Assembly: GCA_964230645.1 (NCBI GenBank)
Contig: CAXRHT010000001.1
Coordinates: 608,001 to 672,000 of the forward strand
Length of the DNA: 64,000 nucleotides
From: Bdellovibrionales bacterium
GTDB taxonomy: Bacteria; Bdellovibrionota; Bdellovibrionia; Bdellovibrionales; JAGQZY01
Direction: 5' to 3'
The translations under genes and the position numbers were made by a program. Below the pieces are notes generated by a model, which made no database searches, was not told where the DNA came from, and saw nothing but the letters and a program-made list of their open reading frames with translations. Positions 3,678-42,410 of this stretch are shown here, one piece after another (the first letter of the stretch is position 1; every line of letters starts with the position of its first letter).

Positions 3678-5618
3678 TTAAACCTTGATTAGATTTTCTC
3701 TACTTTTTGTTTCGATTTCTTTGTTAACGGTTTTAATAAAGTCCTCAATACTCATGGCAGGACTTGTTTCTCCTGTTCGCACTCGTACAGAAACTTGATT
3801 GTCTTCTAATTCTTTGTCCCCAATGATCATCATATAGGGCACTTTTTGTAATTGGTTTTCTCGGATTTTGTAGCCAAGCTTTTCATTGCGATCATCAAAG
3901 TGAACACGAACACCTTGCTCTTCCAATTGCTTCTTAATTTTCAAACAGTACTCTTTTTGCCTGTCGGTCACATTAAGAATGCTTACCTGGGTTGGGCAGA
4001 GCCATAAAGGAAATTTACCATCCATATGTTCAATATAAATACCGATAAAACGCTCAAGAGTTCCTAGAATCGCTCGGTGAAGTAAAACCGGTTGATGCTC
4101 TTGGTTGTCTTCTCCCACGTAGGAGAGCTCAAAGTTTTTAGGCATATTAAAATCCACTTGCATGGTTCCAAGCTGCCAAGTCCGTTTCATCACGTCTACA
4201 AAATGAATTTCAATTTTAGGACCATAAAAAGCACCATCACCAGGACTAATTTCATAGGGAATATCAAGTGACTTGAGAGCTGTTTCAAGAGCTTGCTCCG
4301 ATTGATCCCATATGTCGTCACTCCCTAATCGATCTTCTGGGCGAGTGGCCACATAGACTTTGAAATCCGCTAAACCAAGAGTGTCGTAGATCTCTTTAAG
4401 CATTTGCATAAAAGACTGAATCTCACTTTGCATTTGCTCCACAGTACAAAAAATATGAGCATCATCCTGACACATCGAACGCACACGAGTGAGCCCATGC
4501 AAAGCCCCACTGGCTTCGTAGCGATGCAGACGGCCGAAGTCAGCAATTCTCATCGGTAGCTCACGATAGGAGTGTTTTTCAGAAGCATAAAGAAGACAGT
4601 GACCAGGGCAATTCATCGGTTTTACACCCGTAACCCCTTTATCACCAAGCTCACTAAAGTACATATTGTCTTGATAATGATCGTAGTGGCCGGAAGCCTT
4701 ATAAAGTGCCACATCATATATTTGAGGGGTGATCACTTCACTGTATTCGTATTTTTTGTAACAGTCGCGAATGTAGCCCGTCAGTTCATTATAGATAGTT
4801 GTTCCACGAGGGGTGAAAAACGGCATCCCCGGAGCCCAATCATGAAACATGAATAGACCTAGGTCTTTTCCAACCTTCCTGTGGTCTCGTTTTTTAGCTT
4901 CCTCTAGGAAATGAAGATACTCTTTGAGTTCTTTCTTGTCGTTAAAGGCCGTTCCATAAACACGCTGAAGCTGTTTGTTATTTTGGTCTCCGCGCCAATA
5001 GGCTCCAGCCAAACTCATCACCTTCACAGCTTTGACTTGCCCGGTGTGCTGCACATGGGGCCCACGACAGAGATCAAACCACTCCCCTTGGGAGTAGACA
5101 GAAACCTCGTCTTCTCCAAGGTCACGAATAATTTCTGCCTTATAGGTTTCACCCATGTCGTTAAAAATTTTAATCGCTTTTTCGGCGGACCAAACTTCTT
5201 TTGTCACAGGAAGATTTCTTTTAACAATTTCCTTCATTTTCTTTTCAATCTTAGCAAGGTCGTCAGAGGAGAAAGGAGTTTTTGGATCAAAATCATAATA
5301 GAAACCGGAATCAACCACAGGACCTATCGTCACTTTTACATCATCGAAGAGCTCTTGTACGGCTTGCGCCATAATGTGAGCCCCAGAGTGTCTGAGCACT
5401 TCTCTGCCCTCAGGAGATTGCGCAGTCACTATAGAGAGCTGATCGCCATCATTAAGCTTTGTGCGCAAATCCACCACTTCTTTTGAGTCGTTGATTTGCC
5501 CACCAACAGTGGACTTCGCTAAGCCCGAACCGATGCTCTCGGCCACTTCTAGTACAGTTGGCTCGTGATCAAAGGATTTTATGGAGTTATCAGGTAAACG
5601 GATCTTTATCGATGACAT
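3678..5618 (-). CDS. thrS: Threonine--tRNA ligase
   Basis: TGS domain, DLCRGPH, RDHR, KPMNCPGH, GAFYGPK, HRAILG. Confidence 0.98.
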   Translation of the reverse strand: MSSIKIRLPDNSIKSFDHEPTVLEVAESIGSGLAKSTVGGQINDSKEVVDLRTKLNDGDQLSIVTAQSPEGREVLRHSGAHIMAQAVQELFDDVKVTIGPVVDSGFYYDFDPKTPFSSDDLAKIEKKMKEIVKRNLPVTKEVWSAEKAIKIFNDMGETYKAEIIRDLGEDEVSVYSQGEWFDLCRGPHVQHTGQVKAVKVMSLAGAYWRGDQNNKQLQRVYGTAFNDKKELKEYLHFLEEAKKRDHRKVGKDLGLFMFHDWAPGMPFFTPRGTTIYNELTGYIRDCYKKYEYSEVITPQIYDVALYKASGHYDHYQDNMYFSELGDKGVTGVKPMNCPGHCLLYASEKHSYRELPMRIADFGRLHRYEASGALHGLTRVRSMCQDDAHIFCTVEQMQSEIQSFMQMLKEIYDTLGLADFKVYVATRPEDRLGSDDIWDQSEQALETALKSLDIPYEISPGDGAFYGPKIEIHFVDVMKRTWQLGTMQVDFNMPKNFELSYVGEDNQEHQPVLLHRAILGTLERFIGIYIEHMDGKFPLWLCPTQVSILNVTDRQKEYCLKIKKQLEEQGVRVHFDDRNEKLGYKIRENQLQKVPYMMIIGDKELEDNQVSVRVRTGETSPAMSIEDFIKTVNKEIETKSRENLIKV

Positions 5619-7660: not shown

Positions 7661-8274
7661 TATTTTCCTCGCGATTTCTTTTGAAGTTCTCTAACGTACA
7701 GAACCACAGCCCAACGATCTTTTTCCTTTGGAAGTTGATGGATGTAAGTTCCCATCAGACCCTGACCGTCAGTAATAATATGAAAGATTCTTCCATCGGG
7801 ATAATTTTTAATTTTGTCTGTCACAAGAGAGGGAGGTTTAATACCTACGAATTTATCCGCCACTTGGCCATCGCCCTGTCCACCCGGTCCATGGCAAAGA
7901 AGACAAAAGTTTTTGTAATGTCTTTTACCAAGCTGAACCATGTCCTTTTTGCTGGTGTAAGGGTTAGAGAGCTCCTGCCCCGCTTTCACAGGCTGGCCTT
8001 TGTAAAGATAAGGCTTTACATTCTTTGGCCAACTTCCCTCGGGTGGAACAAGCATAGAGCTCTTCTCTCTATTTTGAGGGTGAAAGTCTTGGGCCTTGAG
8101 AGCTGGCTGCTCTAACATATCTTGAATCAGTTCGACATTGGGCTTATTGCCATCGGGCCCACAACCTGTGAGCACGAGTCCCGCAAAAGTTAACATTGTT
8201 AAAAACGCCACCCCTGCAAAACTAAAGATGAACAAAGTCTTTACCCACTCGAGAATACTTACCGCTGTTTTCAT
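7660..8274 (-). CDS. actE: Alternative complex III monoheme cytochrome c lipoprotein
   Basis: Lipobox LTGC and one CLLCH motif. Likely start is ATG 8274, just after the actD stop (ORF track starts at 8313). Confidence 0.88.
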   Translation of the reverse strand: MKTAVSILEWVKTLFIFSFAGVAFLTMLTFAGLVLTGCGPDGNKPNVELIQDMLEQPALKAQDFHPQNREKSSMLVPPEGSWPKNVKPYLYKGQPVKAGQELSNPYTSKKDMVQLGKRHYKNFCLLCHGPGGQGDGQVADKFVGIKPPSLVTDKIKNYPDGRIFHIITDGQGLMGTYIHQLPKEKDRWAVVLYVRELQKKSRGK

Positions 8275-8275
8275 A

Positions 8276-8800
8276 CTAATACTCCGAAACTCTTTTGACT
8301 TCATCTGCACCAAGCTCTTTCATAAAAGCTTCTACTTTTTCTACGGAATAGCCCTCTTCATTATCAGGGACCCAAAGCGCAAATTTATGAGAGGTTAAAT
8401 CTGGGTCAATAATGGGTGGGTTAATCGTAGGAAGACCATTTAAAATAAACATGGTGATCACTGATGAAAGGGCTGCAAATAAAATTGTAATTTCAAAGGT
8501 GATGGGAATAAAAGCCGGAATAGAGAAAAAAGGCTTTCCTCCCACATTGATCGCCCAACTCACAGCACTGGTCCAATATTGTAATAGTAGACCCGCTCCA
8601 CAACCGGTCACTCCTGCAACAAAAGTGACCCATGGAATCCCTGATCTCTTAATCCCCACAGCTTCTTCCATGCCGTGCACGGGAAAAGGAGTGATGGCAT
8701 CAAACTTTTTATAGCCAGCCTTTCTCATTTTCTCTGCGGCAATTAAAATTTTATCATCATCTAAGAAAATACCAGCCACGCCACTTCTTCTTTTTGCCAT
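8276..8800 (-). CDS. actD: Alternative complex III subunit D (DUF3341-like)
   Basis: TPFPVHG and GGKP...PAFIPITFE motifs. Confidence 0.9.
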   Translation of the reverse strand: MAKRRSGVAGIFLDDDKILIAAEKMRKAGYKKFDAITPFPVHGMEEAVGIKRSGIPWVTFVAGVTGCGAGLLLQYWTSAVSWAINVGGKPFFSIPAFIPITFEITILFAALSSVITMFILNGLPTINPPIIDPDLTSHKFALWVPDNEEGYSVEKVEAFMKELGADEVKRVSEY

Positions 8801-13266: not shown

Positions 13267-13809
13267 TCAATTATGACAGGTTGAACAGTTTAAAGGGCCT
13301 TGAGGATCTTGTTCTCTGTGGCAATTCACACACCAACCCATGGAGAGGCTGCTATGTTGCTCAACCACATCCATCTTTTTAATATCACCATGACAGGTGT
13401 TACAGGCTGGATAGCGATCATCAGGGGTGCTAAAACGATGAACGTGACGTTTGTGATTAAACTTCACGTGGTCTGGTAACATATGAACTTTCACCCAGTT
13501 CACCGTCTCCCCATCGAAGTACTTCTTTCTTAGTTTTTGAATTTCTGGTTTGTCGATCGCAACAACCTGGTGGCAATTCATACAAATATTAAGACTGGGA
13601 ACAGCAGAGTGCTTCGCCACTTCCACTTGTGTGTGACAGTACACACAAGCCATCTTGTATTTTCCCGCGTGAAGTTTGTGAGAAAACTTGATGGGTTGTT
13701 CTGGTTTATACCCTTTGTTGTATCCTATGCTTCCCCACTCACATTGACTGCAGAAAAGCATAATTAATAACAAGGGAAAGAATTTTATCGATCGCTGAAT
13801 CAAGAACAT
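13267..13809 (-). CDS. actA: Alternative complex III pentaheme cytochrome c
   Basis: Five CxxCH motifs (CVYCH, CMNCH, CNTCH, CVNCH, CSTCH) and QPIKFSH. ATG 13809 follows AAGGAGAG. Confidence 0.92.
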   Translation of the reverse strand: MFLIQRSIKFFPLLLIMLFCSQCEWGSIGYNKGYKPEQPIKFSHKLHAGKYKMACVYCHTQVEVAKHSAVPSLNICMNCHQVVAIDKPEIQKLRKKYFDGETVNWVKVHMLPDHVKFNHKRHVHRFSTPDDRYPACNTCHGDIKKMDVVEQHSSLSMGWCVNCHREQDPQGPLNCSTCHN

Positions 13810-14083
13810 CGACTCTCCTTCAACTGCACCGTTCACCGGTGCGACCAACTCAGTAGACCCAAGAGTACGCGAAAATCGTACTGATCAAGGGCGCGATTTA
13901 ATTTTCAAAAGCCTTTCACTTGTAAAAGAAATACCCGTGCTTGTTAAGGATTTTACGAATCTGCATTAAGATTGTGCAGGCTATGCCGCGCACTATCAAT
14001 CTGAGGGCTGTTGTGAAAAAGAGACGATTTTGTCTTTTTTTGCAAAAATCACTCAACACTCTCCAAGCCGAAGGAAGCAAAAT

Positions 14084-14180
14084 AAAAAAAAGCATCGTGT
14101 GGGGCACGATGCTTTCGGGGTATGGGATATGGGGATTTGGGATCTATGAAGGCCTTCGACACTGTCTCCAACCTTCTGAC
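14084..14180 (-). ncRNA. Candidate C-rich small RNA, copy A (~97 nt)
   Basis: Sigma-54-like promoter upstream, 5' hairpin, GAUCCCAAAUCCCCAUAUCCCAUACCCC tract, 11-bp terminator stem with CCCCA loop and U8 tail. Confidence 0.6.
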
Positions 14181-14190
14181 TTTATATATA

Positions 14191-14206
14191 TTCATTTTTA
14201 GTGCCA
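14191..14206 (-). promoter_or_regulatory. Sigma-54-type promoter (variant -12)
   Basis: TGGCACTAAAAATGAA: perfect -24 TGGCAC, with GG-N10-GA instead of GC. Confidence 0.5.
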
Positions 14207-14301
14207 ATTTTGAATGCTCATCTCAAATTAACAGCTCTCCCATTTGGCTCTCACTCGAAAATTTAGCAAGACGCTCTAAAACGGCACCCCCCTGCCAAGA
14301 C

Positions 14302-16014
14302 TTAAAACAATTGAGCCTGACTCCAAAAGTTCTCTAACTTTGCAAAATATGTTTCATCCTGAGACTCTCCAACCAGAGGCGCACCTTCTTGACGAACTTG
14401 CAGAGCCGCCTCTTTGAAACTAAGGCCTTTGATTTTGAGTTCTAAAACCTCTCTCATCCGTTTCTCGTAAACAACGCCTCCACTCACACAGGGCAGAGGG
14501 TTTTCGATATCTGGTATATACGCACTTATTAGTAGAGCTGTTTTTAAATCTTTGCCGCTAACCCCTGGAAAGCTCTCAGCCACGCGAGCCACAACATTGA
14601 GTGCCTTGGGTGTTGCCATGGATGTTCCAGAAAGCGGGCCGTAACTTCCACCTAAAAAGGCCGCCATCACATCCGTTCCTGGAGCGAAAATATCGGCTGA
14701 CTGTTTTCCGTAACTGGAAAAATCGGCTTTTATGGCATATTCAGGATCCGGAGTCTCCTGCCACTCCGCCGCCGCAAGGGCCCCCACCACGACCATATTA
14801 TCGTGCTGCCATCCTGCTGGAAATTTGGGGAACTCGTCCAAATCGCTAACGGAGTTACCAGCGGCAATAAAGAAAAGAGCGTCGGATTGGGATTCAATCA
14901 ACTCTTCTAGAGCAATAAAGGATTCCCGTGGTGGCGCCATCCCTCCGGGAGTTTCAAAGGAAAAACTCATGTTCACAAAGCGGGCTTTATGAGTTTTGAT
15001 AAATTCTCCTATGCGCGCAAGTTGAGCGGGGTTGGTGTAATTTCCAGCAAAACCGGCCAGCGACCATCTTTCAATTCCGTCCATTGCCAAACTGGCCACA
15101 TGGGTTCCATGGGAAATAATGGGGCGGAGTTTATCGTTAAAGAGAAAGGATTCTCTTAAATCGTTTATGGGCTCTCCCCCTTGAACCTGATTCACCCCAT
15201 AAACGTCATCCACAAGACCGTTACCATCGTTATCAAAACCGTCGAATGTCTCTTTGGGGTTTTGATACCAGTGAGAAACTAAATCCGGGTGATCGGTTTC
15301 AAAACCAGAATCAATAACCACGACACCTAGGGGTTTAGGGGCAGGCCATGAATTCTCCTCATACAGCTCATCAAATCTTACTGGTCCCTGGCTGGAATAA
15401 TCACTGATGACTTGTTGATCTCGGTTAAGTCTTCGCACACCCACCACCCGTACATCCAAAACAACCTGCGCGCTGGGATCATTGACAGTGTACTCTTCAT
15501 AAAACTCCACCTCTTCGTTATCGTCATAGAAAATTTTGAAAAGAGGGATGTCGGTCCCTTCTACATACTCCAGGTAAAGAACCAAGCGAGAGTCCGTTTT
15601 ATTTTCATTTTCTTCGTATATCCATTCGGCAAGTTTGAGTGGAAGGACTTGCCCTGGAATATCACGCACATGGGTTTTCTTTTTAATATAGGCTCGAAAG
15701 GGCTCAACAGAATAAGAGGTCTTTATATAGCTACCATCGGAAAGCTCCTCAATATCCCCCTCATAGGTCTGCTCTTGATCGATATTATAAATCTTTACAC
15801 TAACCCTCTGACCATTTTCGTAGAAAACAGATTTAGAAAGCTTTGATGGGTCAGAAAACAATCGGTCGACACGAACCAATTCACCAGACTCGTTACAGTA
15901 GTTGCGATATCTATCCTCTTCATTACCGAGAGGATGATCCGGACAGAGAATTTCCATAGACATAGCCTGAAAACTCATGAGCAAACTCAAGATGAGAAAT
16001 AAACCCCTATTCAT
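14302..16014 (-). CDS. Secreted S8 (subtilisin-like) serine peptidase
   Basis: VIDSG, SHGTHVA, AAGN, GTSMATP catalytic motifs; signal peptide from ATG 16014 (ORF track starts at 16080). Confidence 0.9.
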   Translation of the reverse strand: MNRGLFLILSLLMSFQAMSMEILCPDHPLGNEEDRYRNYCNESGELVRVDRLFSDPSKLSKSVFYENGQRVSVKIYNIDQEQTYEGDIEELSDGSYIKTSYSVEPFRAYIKKKTHVRDIPGQVLPLKLAEWIYEENENKTDSRLVLYLEYVEGTDIPLFKIFYDDNEEVEFYEEYTVNDPSAQVVLDVRVVGVRRLNRDQQVISDYSSQGPVRFDELYEENSWPAPKPLGVVVIDSGFETDHPDLVSHWYQNPKETFDGFDNDGNGLVDDVYGVNQVQGGEPINDLRESFLFNDKLRPIISHGTHVASLAMDGIERWSLAGFAGNYTNPAQLARIGEFIKTHKARFVNMSFSFETPGGMAPPRESFIALEELIESQSDALFFIAAGNSVSDLDEFPKFPAGWQHDNMVVVGALAAAEWQETPDPEYAIKADFSSYGKQSADIFAPGTDVMAAFLGGSYGPLSGTSMATPKALNVVARVAESFPGVSGKDLKTALLISAYIPDIENPLPCVSGGVVYEKRMREVLELKIKGLSFKEAALQVRQEGAPLVGESQDETYFAKLENFWSQAQLF

Positions 16015-16131
16015 TTTTGACCCCTTGTTAAACAGTGGAAAACCTAGCACAAGCCCTAGAGAACATCTCTTAGGAGTCATGAAATGAATTTTTTTCTGTT
16101 TTTTTTACAGGCTGTCAGTTAGGTAATAGGT

Positions 16132-40568: not shown

Positions 40569-41132
40569 GTGGCAAAGAGTTCAACAAAAGGTTTTTCGCT
40601 AATGGAGCTCATGGTCGCTGTAGCGATCATTGCCATCTTATCTCTGATGGCTGTCCCCGCCTATCAAGGGTTCCAAGCCCGAGCGAGACAAAAAGAAGGT
40701 TTCCATTTGGCAAATACCTTTTACACTGCGGCCCAAGCGACCCATACCGAGTTTGGTTTTTATCCAGGAGACTTCGTACAAACAGGTTTCCAACCCCAAG
40801 GAAGATTGGGCTACCGGCTTCGCACACAGAACGGAACTCTTATTCCATCTTTGCCGAATGATGATGGCTGCCTGAATACAGACCAGCCTTGCGACTGCGG
40901 GGGAGATTGCCCTAATTATAGAGAGTGGGAGGAAATTCCAGGAAACGTCGGCACCGAGACCCTCGGAGCAGTTGGATGTGATTGGGGAGCCTCCTGCGGC
41001 CCTCCTTTTGTCACTGACGATACTTTTCAAATTCTCGTTTGTGGATACGTAAACACTCGTTCTGCGTTGAGAGATCAATACGGCATGAATGAAAACAAAC
41101 AACTCACCATGTGTTTAGATGGATTGAAGTAA
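40569..41132 (+). CDS. Type IV pilin-like protein
   Basis: GTG after AAGGAG; KG|FSLMELMVAVAIIAIL...AVP.Y...RARQ.E; 8 Cys residues. Confidence 0.88.
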   Translation: MAKSSTKGFSLMELMVAVAIIAILSLMAVPAYQGFQARARQKEGFHLANTFYTAAQATHTEFGFYPGDFVQTGFQPQGRLGYRLRTQNGTLIPSLPNDDGCLNTDQPCDCGGDCPNYREWEEIPGNVGTETLGAVGCDWGASCGPPFVTDDTFQILVCGYVNTRSALRDQYGMNENKQLTMCLDGLK

Positions 41133-41192
41133 AAAAAAACGACCTGGTTTTGGGGAGCCAGGTCGAAAAAGGGGGATATGGGATCGTACCCC
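41131..41192 (-). ncRNA. Candidate C-rich small RNA, copy B (~60 nt)
   Basis: Sigma-54 promoter upstream, GAUCCCAUAUCCCCC motif, 8-bp terminator stem with CUCCCCAAAA loop and U9 tail. Confidence 0.55.
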
Positions 41193-41199
41193 TATATGA

Positions 41200-41216
41200 A
41201 GCAATCCCTATGCCCA
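41200..41216 (-). promoter_or_regulatory. Sigma-54-type promoter
   Basis: GGGCATAGGGATTGCT = GG-N10-GC with TTGCT at -12. Confidence 0.6.
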
Positions 41217-41333
41217 AAAAAATCTTAGCCCCCTGAACCAAGTATCTAATAATATTAGTGACTTATCCAACCTCACGCGACTCTACTTGTGACAATTTTG
41301 GGCCCAGTAACAATTTTCCGCGCCCCAATTTTG

Positions 41334-42410
41334 TCACTGCGACCTTGGTAAAGGCCGTTTTCCCATCGCGATAAGATGGTGTTGATGGGCCTTTACAGCA
41401 GAAAATAGACTTGGAAATTCATGGTAATGGAAGTTGTGACTCTGACAGGCTCTTTTTAATATTGGACGAATCTGAGGGTAATGAGTGTGACTGTAATTGG
41501 GAAAGATATGGTGCTCAATTTGATGATTAAGACCTCCCAGGTACCAGGACAGGAATCTATTTTTGGTAGCGAAGTTCGCTGTTGTGGCTAATTGAAACTC
41601 CGCCCAATCACTAGAGGTCCCCTTTTTTGAGAATTGTTGAACGTTGCTGACATGGGCCAATTGAAACACCACTACCATAATAAATCCCATCAATCCGAAG
41701 CTCACAAGGTAGCCAGTCAATACTAGAAGTGGATCACCGATGGTCCAAAGAGGAAGGAGCAAGAACAAAGAAACGTGCCAGAGTTTAACGAACAAGGTTT
41801 CCCAAATTACTTTTTTTAGAACCTTTGGTTTTAGGCTATAAGTGTTGCCTTTGATGTCGCGAAAATCACCCCACCACACCCAGCTTAAAATAAATAGCGG
41901 ATAGAGAAACCAAGCATAGATATGTTGAAAGCGGTGATTGGAGTGGAAGTTCTGCTGTTCGCAAAGCCTCAACAAACCGTTGGTATTTATATCATGATCT
42001 TTTCCAGGCACGTTAGTGAAACTGTGGTGGGCCACGCAGTGCTGATGAACCCACAAGGTTGGGCTACCACCTAAAAAAGAAATAACGTTTAAGAAAAGAT
42101 TGTTGATTGAACTATTGTCACTTGTCGCTTTATGACTGGCATCATGCATGACGGACATTTGAATGGAAACCATAATCAGAGCCCAAGGCAAGGCCAACAA
42201 AATGTTTGCCCACAAACTCTCTCCTCCGAAAGTTAAATAAACACCATAACTACCCAGCCATAAAACAAAGAGGATTAGGGCTTTAGCCACAAGTCTTTTG
42301 ACATCTTTTTGGGGACGTTTCGAAGTTTTAAGAAGGTCATTCACTTCTCCTTTCATAAACTTATGAAAGCTTTTTTTATTTTTTGACACTATTGCTGATT
42401 GAGAACTCAT
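41334..42410 (-). CDS. Membrane fatty-acid (acyl-CoA) desaturase
   Basis: His boxes HDASH, HCVAHH, QIEHH; GGLN. Confidence 0.92.
   Translation of the reverse strand: MSSQSAIVSKNKKSFHKFMKGEVNDLLKTSKRPQKDVKRLVAKALILFVLWLGSYGVYLTFGGESLWANILLALPWALIMVSIQMSVMHDASHKATSDNSSINNLFLNVISFLGGSPTLWVHQHCVAHHSFTNVPGKDHDINTNGLLRLCEQQNFHSNHRFQHIYAWFLYPLFILSWVWWGDFRDIKGNTYSLKPKVLKKVIWETLFVKLWHVSLFLLLPLWTIGDPLLVLTGYLVSFGLMGFIMVVVFQLAHVSNVQQFSKKGTSSDWAEFQLATTANFATKNRFLSWYLGGLNHQIEHHIFPNYSHTHYPQIRPILKRACQSHNFHYHEFPSLFSAVKAHQHHLIAMGKRPLPRSQ

Follow-up and report, generated by a model that had tools for sequence, protein, structure and literature searches.

A putative family of C-rich small RNAs with sigma-54-type promoters in the Bdellovibrionales

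The window, by which we mean the whole stretch of 64,000 nucleotides that was analysed, carries on its minus strand two C-rich elements, copy A and copy B, each preceded by a promoter of the sigma-54 type (Table 1). Copy A lies between the gene for an S8 peptidase and that for a multi-haem cytochrome c, both outside the element; we take the cytochrome gene to head an alternative-complex-III-like operon. This downstream gene is present in 57 of the 61 genomes searched, most of them having no long RNA at the locus. Upstream of the operon, at 13915-13960 on the minus strand, an AT-rich block is conserved throughout the genus with or without the RNA and, as judged by eye, is likely to be the operon's own promoter. 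An earlier note on this DNA had described a promoter, a hairpin, a tract of four C-runs and a terminator on the minus strand, and all four are found where it had placed them. It had put the end of the S8 gene about 190 bp away, a figure that fits the terminator (about 190 nt) and not the promoter, from which the stop at 14302 is separated by 96 nt. A small protein was considered and rejected: the open frame over copy A begins inside the promoter, and the tract of the orthologue in genome G004 has a 1-nt gap.

Table 1. Positions in the window of the two elements, their modules and the genes next to copy A
Feature	Positions	Strand	Remarks
Sigma-54-type promoter, copy A	14191..14206	minus	GG at -25/-24, GA replacing GC at -13/-12; predicted function
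Copy A, predicted 97-nt long-form RNA	14084..14180	minus	+1 (14180) placed by promoter geometry
5' hairpin, copy A	14148..14176	minus	arms 14176-14170 and 14154-14148
Single-stranded tract with four C-runs, copy A	14117..14144	minus	likely pairing seeds
Intrinsic terminator, copy A	14084..14115	minus	11-12-bp stem (11 bp at 14115-14089), 5-nt C-rich loop 14104-14100, U8 14091-14084
Weak TCTCA-N3-TGAGA-type palindrome, copy A	14221..14233	minus	candidate activator site; seen by eye, then located
S8 peptidase gene, upstream neighbour	14302..16080	minus	Pfam PF00082
Multi-haem cytochrome c gene, downstream neighbour	13267..13848	minus	Pfam cytochrome c7/c3
Canonical sigma-54 promoter, copy B	41200..41215	minus	TTGC -12 box
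Copy B, predicted 59-nt short-form RNA	41131..41189	minus	unpaired C-runs, C-rich-loop terminator stem, U9 tail
Inverted TGACA/TGTCA-type motif upstream of copy B	41290..41336	minus	candidate activator site

In the predicted fold of the copy A RNA, which has an energy of -28.1 kcal/mol and a z-score of -4.56 (one of 200 shuffled sequences was equally stable), 31 nt of unpaired sequence separate the 5' hairpin from the terminator, and each C-run of the tract has a predicted unpaired probability of 0.97-1.0. The orthologues and paralogues of copy A reach z-scores of -4.4 to -6.1, and in the predicted folds every long copy has the same three modules: 5' hairpin, unpaired C-run tract and terminator with a C-rich loop. 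The loop of the 5' hairpin, usually C-rich in the other long copies, is not so in copy A. Across the eight aligned long copies the GG-N10-G spacing of the promoter is retained without exception, and two-sided changes occur at 7 of the 11 pairs of the terminator stem; the one GGA of copy A is not conserved. Motifs of the TCTCA-N3-TGAGA type were also seen by eye upstream of other long copies, the weak palindrome of copy A being only 15 nt from the promoter.

The 14-mer GAUCCCAWAUCCCC has five exact matches in the 3.78-Mb genome, all in this sRNA family; two are those of copies A and B, and the other three lie in copies on contig C2. Both matches in the window are exact; when up to two mismatches are allowed, two are seen against 1.04 expected, a count that taken alone is not above chance. 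The further genomic copies that the earlier note had looked for do exist, the source genome (G000) holding three long forms besides copy A. Inspection of 30 loci upstream of the cytochrome gene also bore out the conservation it had looked for, in the form of syntenic orthologues with covariation in the genus: of the 12 other genomes of the genus, five (G002, G003, G004, G005 and G008) have the long form where copy A stands in G000. A covariance model built from eight long copies and searched against 61 genomes matched eight of them at E<=0.01, six being the genus genomes that had supplied the seeds, and its sole new strong match was a second copy in G004. It found no match in seven of the twelve other genus genomes, which leaves the long form in 6 of 13 overall. 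At copy A's locus in G004 the upstream gene is a different one and points away, and the second G004 copy faces a convergent gene; these changes of neighbour imply that the element is neither the 3' UTR of the S8 gene nor bound to one downstream gene. Long three-module forms with canonical promoters also occur in other families of the order, where a broader long-form model matches 34 of 150 genomes, some of the matches being short forms. Loose pattern scans missed known members or gave many chance matches, one of them supplying seeds. A weak match in G054 (R1) was discarded because it overlaps a gene end and has no proper promoter.

Two of the three C2 copies, both with interrupted U-tails, sit in a 300-nt direct repeat (L001:5910-6240 and 8238-8570, 94% identical), one in each unit. 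The repeat flanks a 576-aa protein without a Pfam match and is followed by a palindrome that we assume to be REP-like; a Y1 transposase gene (L001:13145-13795) adjoins a tRNA-like sequence.

Copy B had been described as a second element of the same architecture. It does share the 14-mer, but it has no 5' hairpin and only two C-runs in its tract, and is better described as a short sister form, conserved at its own locus in G004 and G009. A loose pattern run over 201 genomes provided the seeds for a model of this form, 14 of which, all from other families, were aligned; their stem was paired in 86.5% of cells, against 47% at most when the alignment was slid. The resulting covariance model matches 133 of the 150 genomes of the order at E<=0.01 (115 at E<1e-6), mostly with one strong copy each, and gives weak or no matches in genus g4. 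Outside the order it finds weak matches in 22 of 126 genomes (E 3e-7 to 1e-3), and several of the seven inspected have a sigma-54 box, C-runs and a C-loop hairpin. It found nothing at 80 pattern-match loci of unrelated taxa, among the matches listed, and viral contigs gave 0 exact matches to the pattern.

The best matches provided 95 loci, with 101 model matches, for a closer survey. GG is present in 100 of the 101 and TTGC in 100-101, a result that is partly circular since the model includes the promoter; the stem is paired in 97% of cells and has two-sided changes at 8 of 9 pairs, in an alignment fitted to the structure. The RNA would be about 54 nt long (95 distinct sequences; some 55-60 nt for the copy B type). 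TGACA/TGTCA half-sites stand upstream of 55 of 99 short forms; in downstream windows they occur in 25 of 97, and shuffling gives a mean of 25. An amidase gene follows on the same strand in 45 of the 95 and precedes on the opposite strand in 14. Of the genes that come next, 68 share the strand of the element and 21 are convergent. In B. bacteriovorus strain HD100, the 3' stem and U-tail that typify the short form are present in the published promoter sequence of Bd2697, a gene whose own start has been mapped some 30 nt beyond that U-tail (PMC3627812 Table S2). This separate start, together with the changing neighbours and orientations, indicates that the short form is a stand-alone gene. Judged by its sequence and surroundings, the copy A element is likewise a stand-alone gene, independent of its neighbours.

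The promoter makes it likely that copy A is transcribed by sigma-54 RNA polymerase. RpoN is encoded in G000, which also has 12 strong matches to enhancer-binding proteins, none of them adjoining an sRNA copy. The aligned long forms of the genus have A or T, never C, at -12, and these variants recur in G000 intergenic DNA at the sigma-54 spacing: GG-N10-GA occurs 8 times there against 0-4 at other spacings, and the GT variant 6 times against 0-1, the canonical GC giving 17 against 1-2. In HD100 a mapped start with 1634 reads (Bd2462) lies just behind a GG-N10-GA site (PMC3627812 Table S2). A sigma-70 reading of copy A was rejected, as the overlapping 9-of-12 match does not keep its spacing in the alignment (by eye). 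At loci L016-L018 and L020 a second hexamer, TGGCAC or TGGCCC, lies some 60-80 nt upstream of the long-form promoter and is followed by TTGAT with the spacing increased by one base; it might represent a tandem promoter or else an IHF-like site.

No match to Rfam 15 reached the gathering threshold in the window, and a search with the copy A region and nine homologous loci returned chance-level matches only (E 0.16-9.8). We found no description of this sRNA family in the literature searched, most subscription papers lying outside its scope. The earlier note's view of a dispersed sRNA family that is not a described one therefore holds, backed by the extra copies, the covarying orthologues, the order-wide short form and the lack of an Rfam match. 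Our best reading is that of an uncatalogued family which would work like LhrC, sX13, 6C and Pxr and belongs to none of them. RsaE, with its unpaired C-rich seeds that pair with mRNA and need no chaperone, is a further precedent.

These comparisons draw on the accessible parts of the papers cited: (i) The LhrC RNAs of Listeria monocytogenes (LhrC1-5, Rli22 and Rli33-1) share with the long form a layout of two stem-loops and a linker. Their UCCC motifs, in loop A, in the single-stranded stretch and in the terminator loop, pair with SD regions (PMC8079631, accessible part). An exposed C-rich motif in each module, the mark of LhrC, is found in the long form generally, although the 5' loop of copy A has none. 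LhrC is described there as controlled by LisRK and sigma-B in a Gram-positive host, whereas here the promoter is of the sigma-54 type (PMC8079631); the family described here has, in addition, longer C-runs, a core form with one hairpin and no Rfam match. (ii) Pxr of Myxococcus xanthus (RF01812) has a predicted sigma-54 promoter with an upstream enhancer site, and a C-run in its published probe (PMC5684412, PMC5568312, PMC11928866). As far as the available portions of these sources go, a C-to-A change in the loop abolishes function, the paralogues each have their own promoter, the predatory host has no Hfq, and the contacts lie near SD sequences (the same papers and bioRxiv 10.1101/2025.09.11.675593). 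A sigma-54-type promoter (here by sequence), a C-run, paralogues and a predatory host in which Hfq is lacking (Myxococcus) or was not found (G000) are thus common to both. Pxr, however, is described in those portions as having three stem-loops and long-to-short processing, in contrast to two (long form) or one (short form) here, and as adjoining the activator gene pxrR, whereas the neighbours here are S8 peptidase and cytochrome, desaturase and pilin-like, or amidase (with an rph cluster) genes. The RF01812 model gave nothing at E<=1 in any of the five genomes tested. (iii) sX13 of Xanthomonas, about 115 nt long with 4C and 5C loops, is reported to repress mRNAs with G-rich start motifs independently of Hfq, and the share of genes with G-rich motifs at the RBS in its host, about 5%, is similar in G000 (PMC3771888, in part). 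By the same account it differs in having three closed hairpins and no long C-rich linker, and in being a single copy beside polA restricted to the Xanthomonadaceae. (iv) The 6C RNA of Actinobacteria (PMC6486639), RNAIII (PMC3771888) and the cuckoo RNAs are described, in the parts consulted, as pairing unpaired C-rich seeds with mRNA without a chaperone, as we propose here; these RNAs, like RsaE, belong to other phyla and have other promoters, and the family here has no Rfam match. (v) The CsrB/RsmZ sponges present repeated GGA in their loops, while the loops of the short forms hold 3% G (n=95). (vi) Eight attack-phase sRNAs of HD100, the only Bdellovibrio sRNAs that we found in the literature searched, are said in the accessible text to have no homologues outside B. 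bacteriovorus, and none of the eight as listed there lies at the short-form 3' end beside Bd2697, at about 2.62 Mb (PMC3627812).

What would such RNAs do? We consider it probable that copy A is a stand-alone sigma-54 gene whose 97-nt RNA represses many mRNAs independently of Hfq. Sigma-54 RNA polymerase would transcribe the RNA, its exposed C-runs would base-pair with G-rich ribosome-binding sites, and this pairing would repress translation of many mRNAs with no need for Hfq. Because of the anatomy of the RNAs and the analogies above, pairing with G-rich start regions would be the likeliest mechanism. In the 95 distinct short forms, C-runs of four or more are predicted to be 98% unpaired, 42 of the 43 single-base interruptions within C-runs are U, CCUCC occurs in the loops of 35, and UU follows the 5' run in 53; these three sequence features resemble the consensus anti-SD sequence, the 16S rRNA 3' end having no exact match in the G000 assembly. 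Genes for Hfq and ProQ were not found in G000, a 99.6% complete genome.

The G-rich ribosome-binding sites that had been pointed out before 58221 (GGGGGAG), 22580 and 16014 (both AAGGGG) are all present, and GGGGG precedes 178 of 3280 predicted starts in G000, 18-fold above internal ATGs (rough gene calls). By a simple rule, signal-peptide-like starts are found in 109 of these 178 G5+ genes, compared with 477 of 1488 genes with a classical SD and 109 of 284 with GGAGG. In 400-kb samples of two relatives the link with exported proteins, strong in G000, had the same direction and was not significant (G080, 3/7 vs 54/175; G097, 7/17 vs 33/128), and GGAGG genes were as enriched for exported proteins as G5+ genes; it was not significant in G310, from another order, either (1/4 vs 34/155). 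The median net ratio of G-run SD use, computed on 66 of the 150 genomes, is 0.25 in the order (24 genomes), 0.40 in family f17 (20 genomes) and 0.11 in f21 (22 genomes); across the phylum it was not seen to track the RNA, G-run SDs being as common in f17, which gave no match to the short-form model. In a scan for target duplexes, the preference for start regions relative to coding windows was equally strong with shuffled and with real seeds, so no specific target stands out, and a search of five genus genomes did not recover the gene predicted as the best target in any of them. It is tempting, if distinctly speculative, to imagine a sigma-54-switched poly-C RNA circuit that gates the life cycle of the Bdellovibrionales as Pxr does in Myxococcus, in which the order-wide core and its lineage-specific long siblings, each under its own activator, would silence as a group those mRNAs whose G-run RBSs mark exported, prey-directed proteins. 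If the pairing model is true, the family would represent a conserved post-transcriptional regulator and an output of RpoN that operates independently of Hfq and ProQ, and this in a predator about whose phase switch little is understood. Members are found in the greater part of the order, and the short form can be seen in HD100, a tractable strain.

Of the two mechanisms suggested in the earlier note, anatomy and analogy lead us to prefer pairing with G-rich ribosome-binding sites to the titration of a protein. According to the titration model, which we regard as unlikely, the RNA is real and acts as a decoy, its unpaired C-runs titrating a C-binding protein such as Rho or the KH-domain proteins KhpA/B. 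Rho binds C-rich rut sites, Rho and KhpA are encoded in G000, and runs made only of C and U would also suit a pyrimidine-binding protein. CsrB-type RNAs likewise carry their repeated motifs in loops and linkers, and the short core often offers no seed beyond a plain C-run. However, the variants with CCUCC or CCUCCUU, and the UU that follows the runs, copy an anti-SD pattern, and a core of 55 nt is short for a Rho loading site. CsrA, also encoded in G000, binds GGA (PMC13443453, accessible part), and no GGA is conserved in these RNAs. Compensatory changes in sX13 failed to restore regulation (PMC3771888, in part), which would suit a decoy, but the five characterised C-loop RNAs compared here are all reported or predicted, in the portions of their sources available, to act on mRNAs.

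Less probable still, in our opinion, is that the short form is the working regulator and the long copies are lineage-limited duplicates, weakly expressed or drifting. The patchy distribution of the long form in the genus would fit, as would its absence from the locus in G007, whose cytochrome is nonetheless closer to that of G000 than those of four carriers are, the two C2 copies with interrupted U-tails in the 300-nt repeat, the non-canonical -12 base and the C-run lost from the 5' loop of copy A. Nevertheless, position, promoter spacing, hairpins and unpaired C-runs are kept across divergent sequence with compensatory changes, three-module long forms recur in other families of the order, and the Bd2462 start of HD100 lies just behind a site with the same GA variant (PMC3627812).

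As for the relationship of the two forms, the long-form model scores copy B second in the window (26 bits) and the short-form model scores the 3' half of copy A second (19.5 bits); genome-wide, cross-matches between long and short are weak or missing, and the 14-mer shared by copies A and B characterises the short form in this genus. The simplest reading is that long siblings grew repeatedly from the short core. The long form would have descended from the short form by duplication and gain of C-rich modules, and the added modules would give more binding sites, a higher dose and a separately regulated promoter. Such a series of short core and long siblings may illustrate the way in which a C-rich regulator acquires further modules and copies.

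A role of the element in cis or at the DNA level (leader or attenuator of the respiratory operon, S8 3' UTR, or G-quadruplex/i-motif site) is very improbable. Copy A does lie on the same strand as both its neighbours, most short forms are followed by a same-strand gene, and the opposite strand of copy A has a motif of four G-runs, this family accounting for 4 of the 24 that the genome contains. But neighbours and orientation vary, genomes that lack the element still have, as judged by eye, a conserved sequence upstream of the respiratory operon that belongs to the operon itself, a separate start is mapped for Bd2697 (PMC3627812 Table S2), and the C-runs lie in RNA loops on the promoter strand, with U interruptions that would break G-runs.

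Several other sequences came to light in the surveys. In G000, L052:1500-1590 (C1:458490-458580) and C1:459062-459150 form a near-identical pair of predicted RNAs flanking a small gene, with two C-rich loops and a terminator and without a sigma-54 box; a DNA search of five genus genomes gave one 21-nt terminator-like match only. L053:1560-1640 (C2:672340-672420 of G000) has a hairpin, three C-runs and a C-loop terminator directly after a gene end, again without a sigma-54 box, and is a possible 3'-UTR-derived sibling. A pattern of 79-80 nt that recurs many times in a few alphaproteobacterial assemblies (L133, L135, L137, L143, L144, L153, L154, L157 and others) is unrelated to the sRNA family by model and possibly a mobile-element end. 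The multi-copy sequences at L119-L123 (G154 and G014), with a sigma-54-like box at the start and without a terminator, are probably repeats of another kind. Finally, the short form itself occurs in tandem: as pairs in G001 and G048, and in G065 (L358:1018-2364) as four copies spaced about 420 nt apart, with a diverged fifth at 4679-4770.
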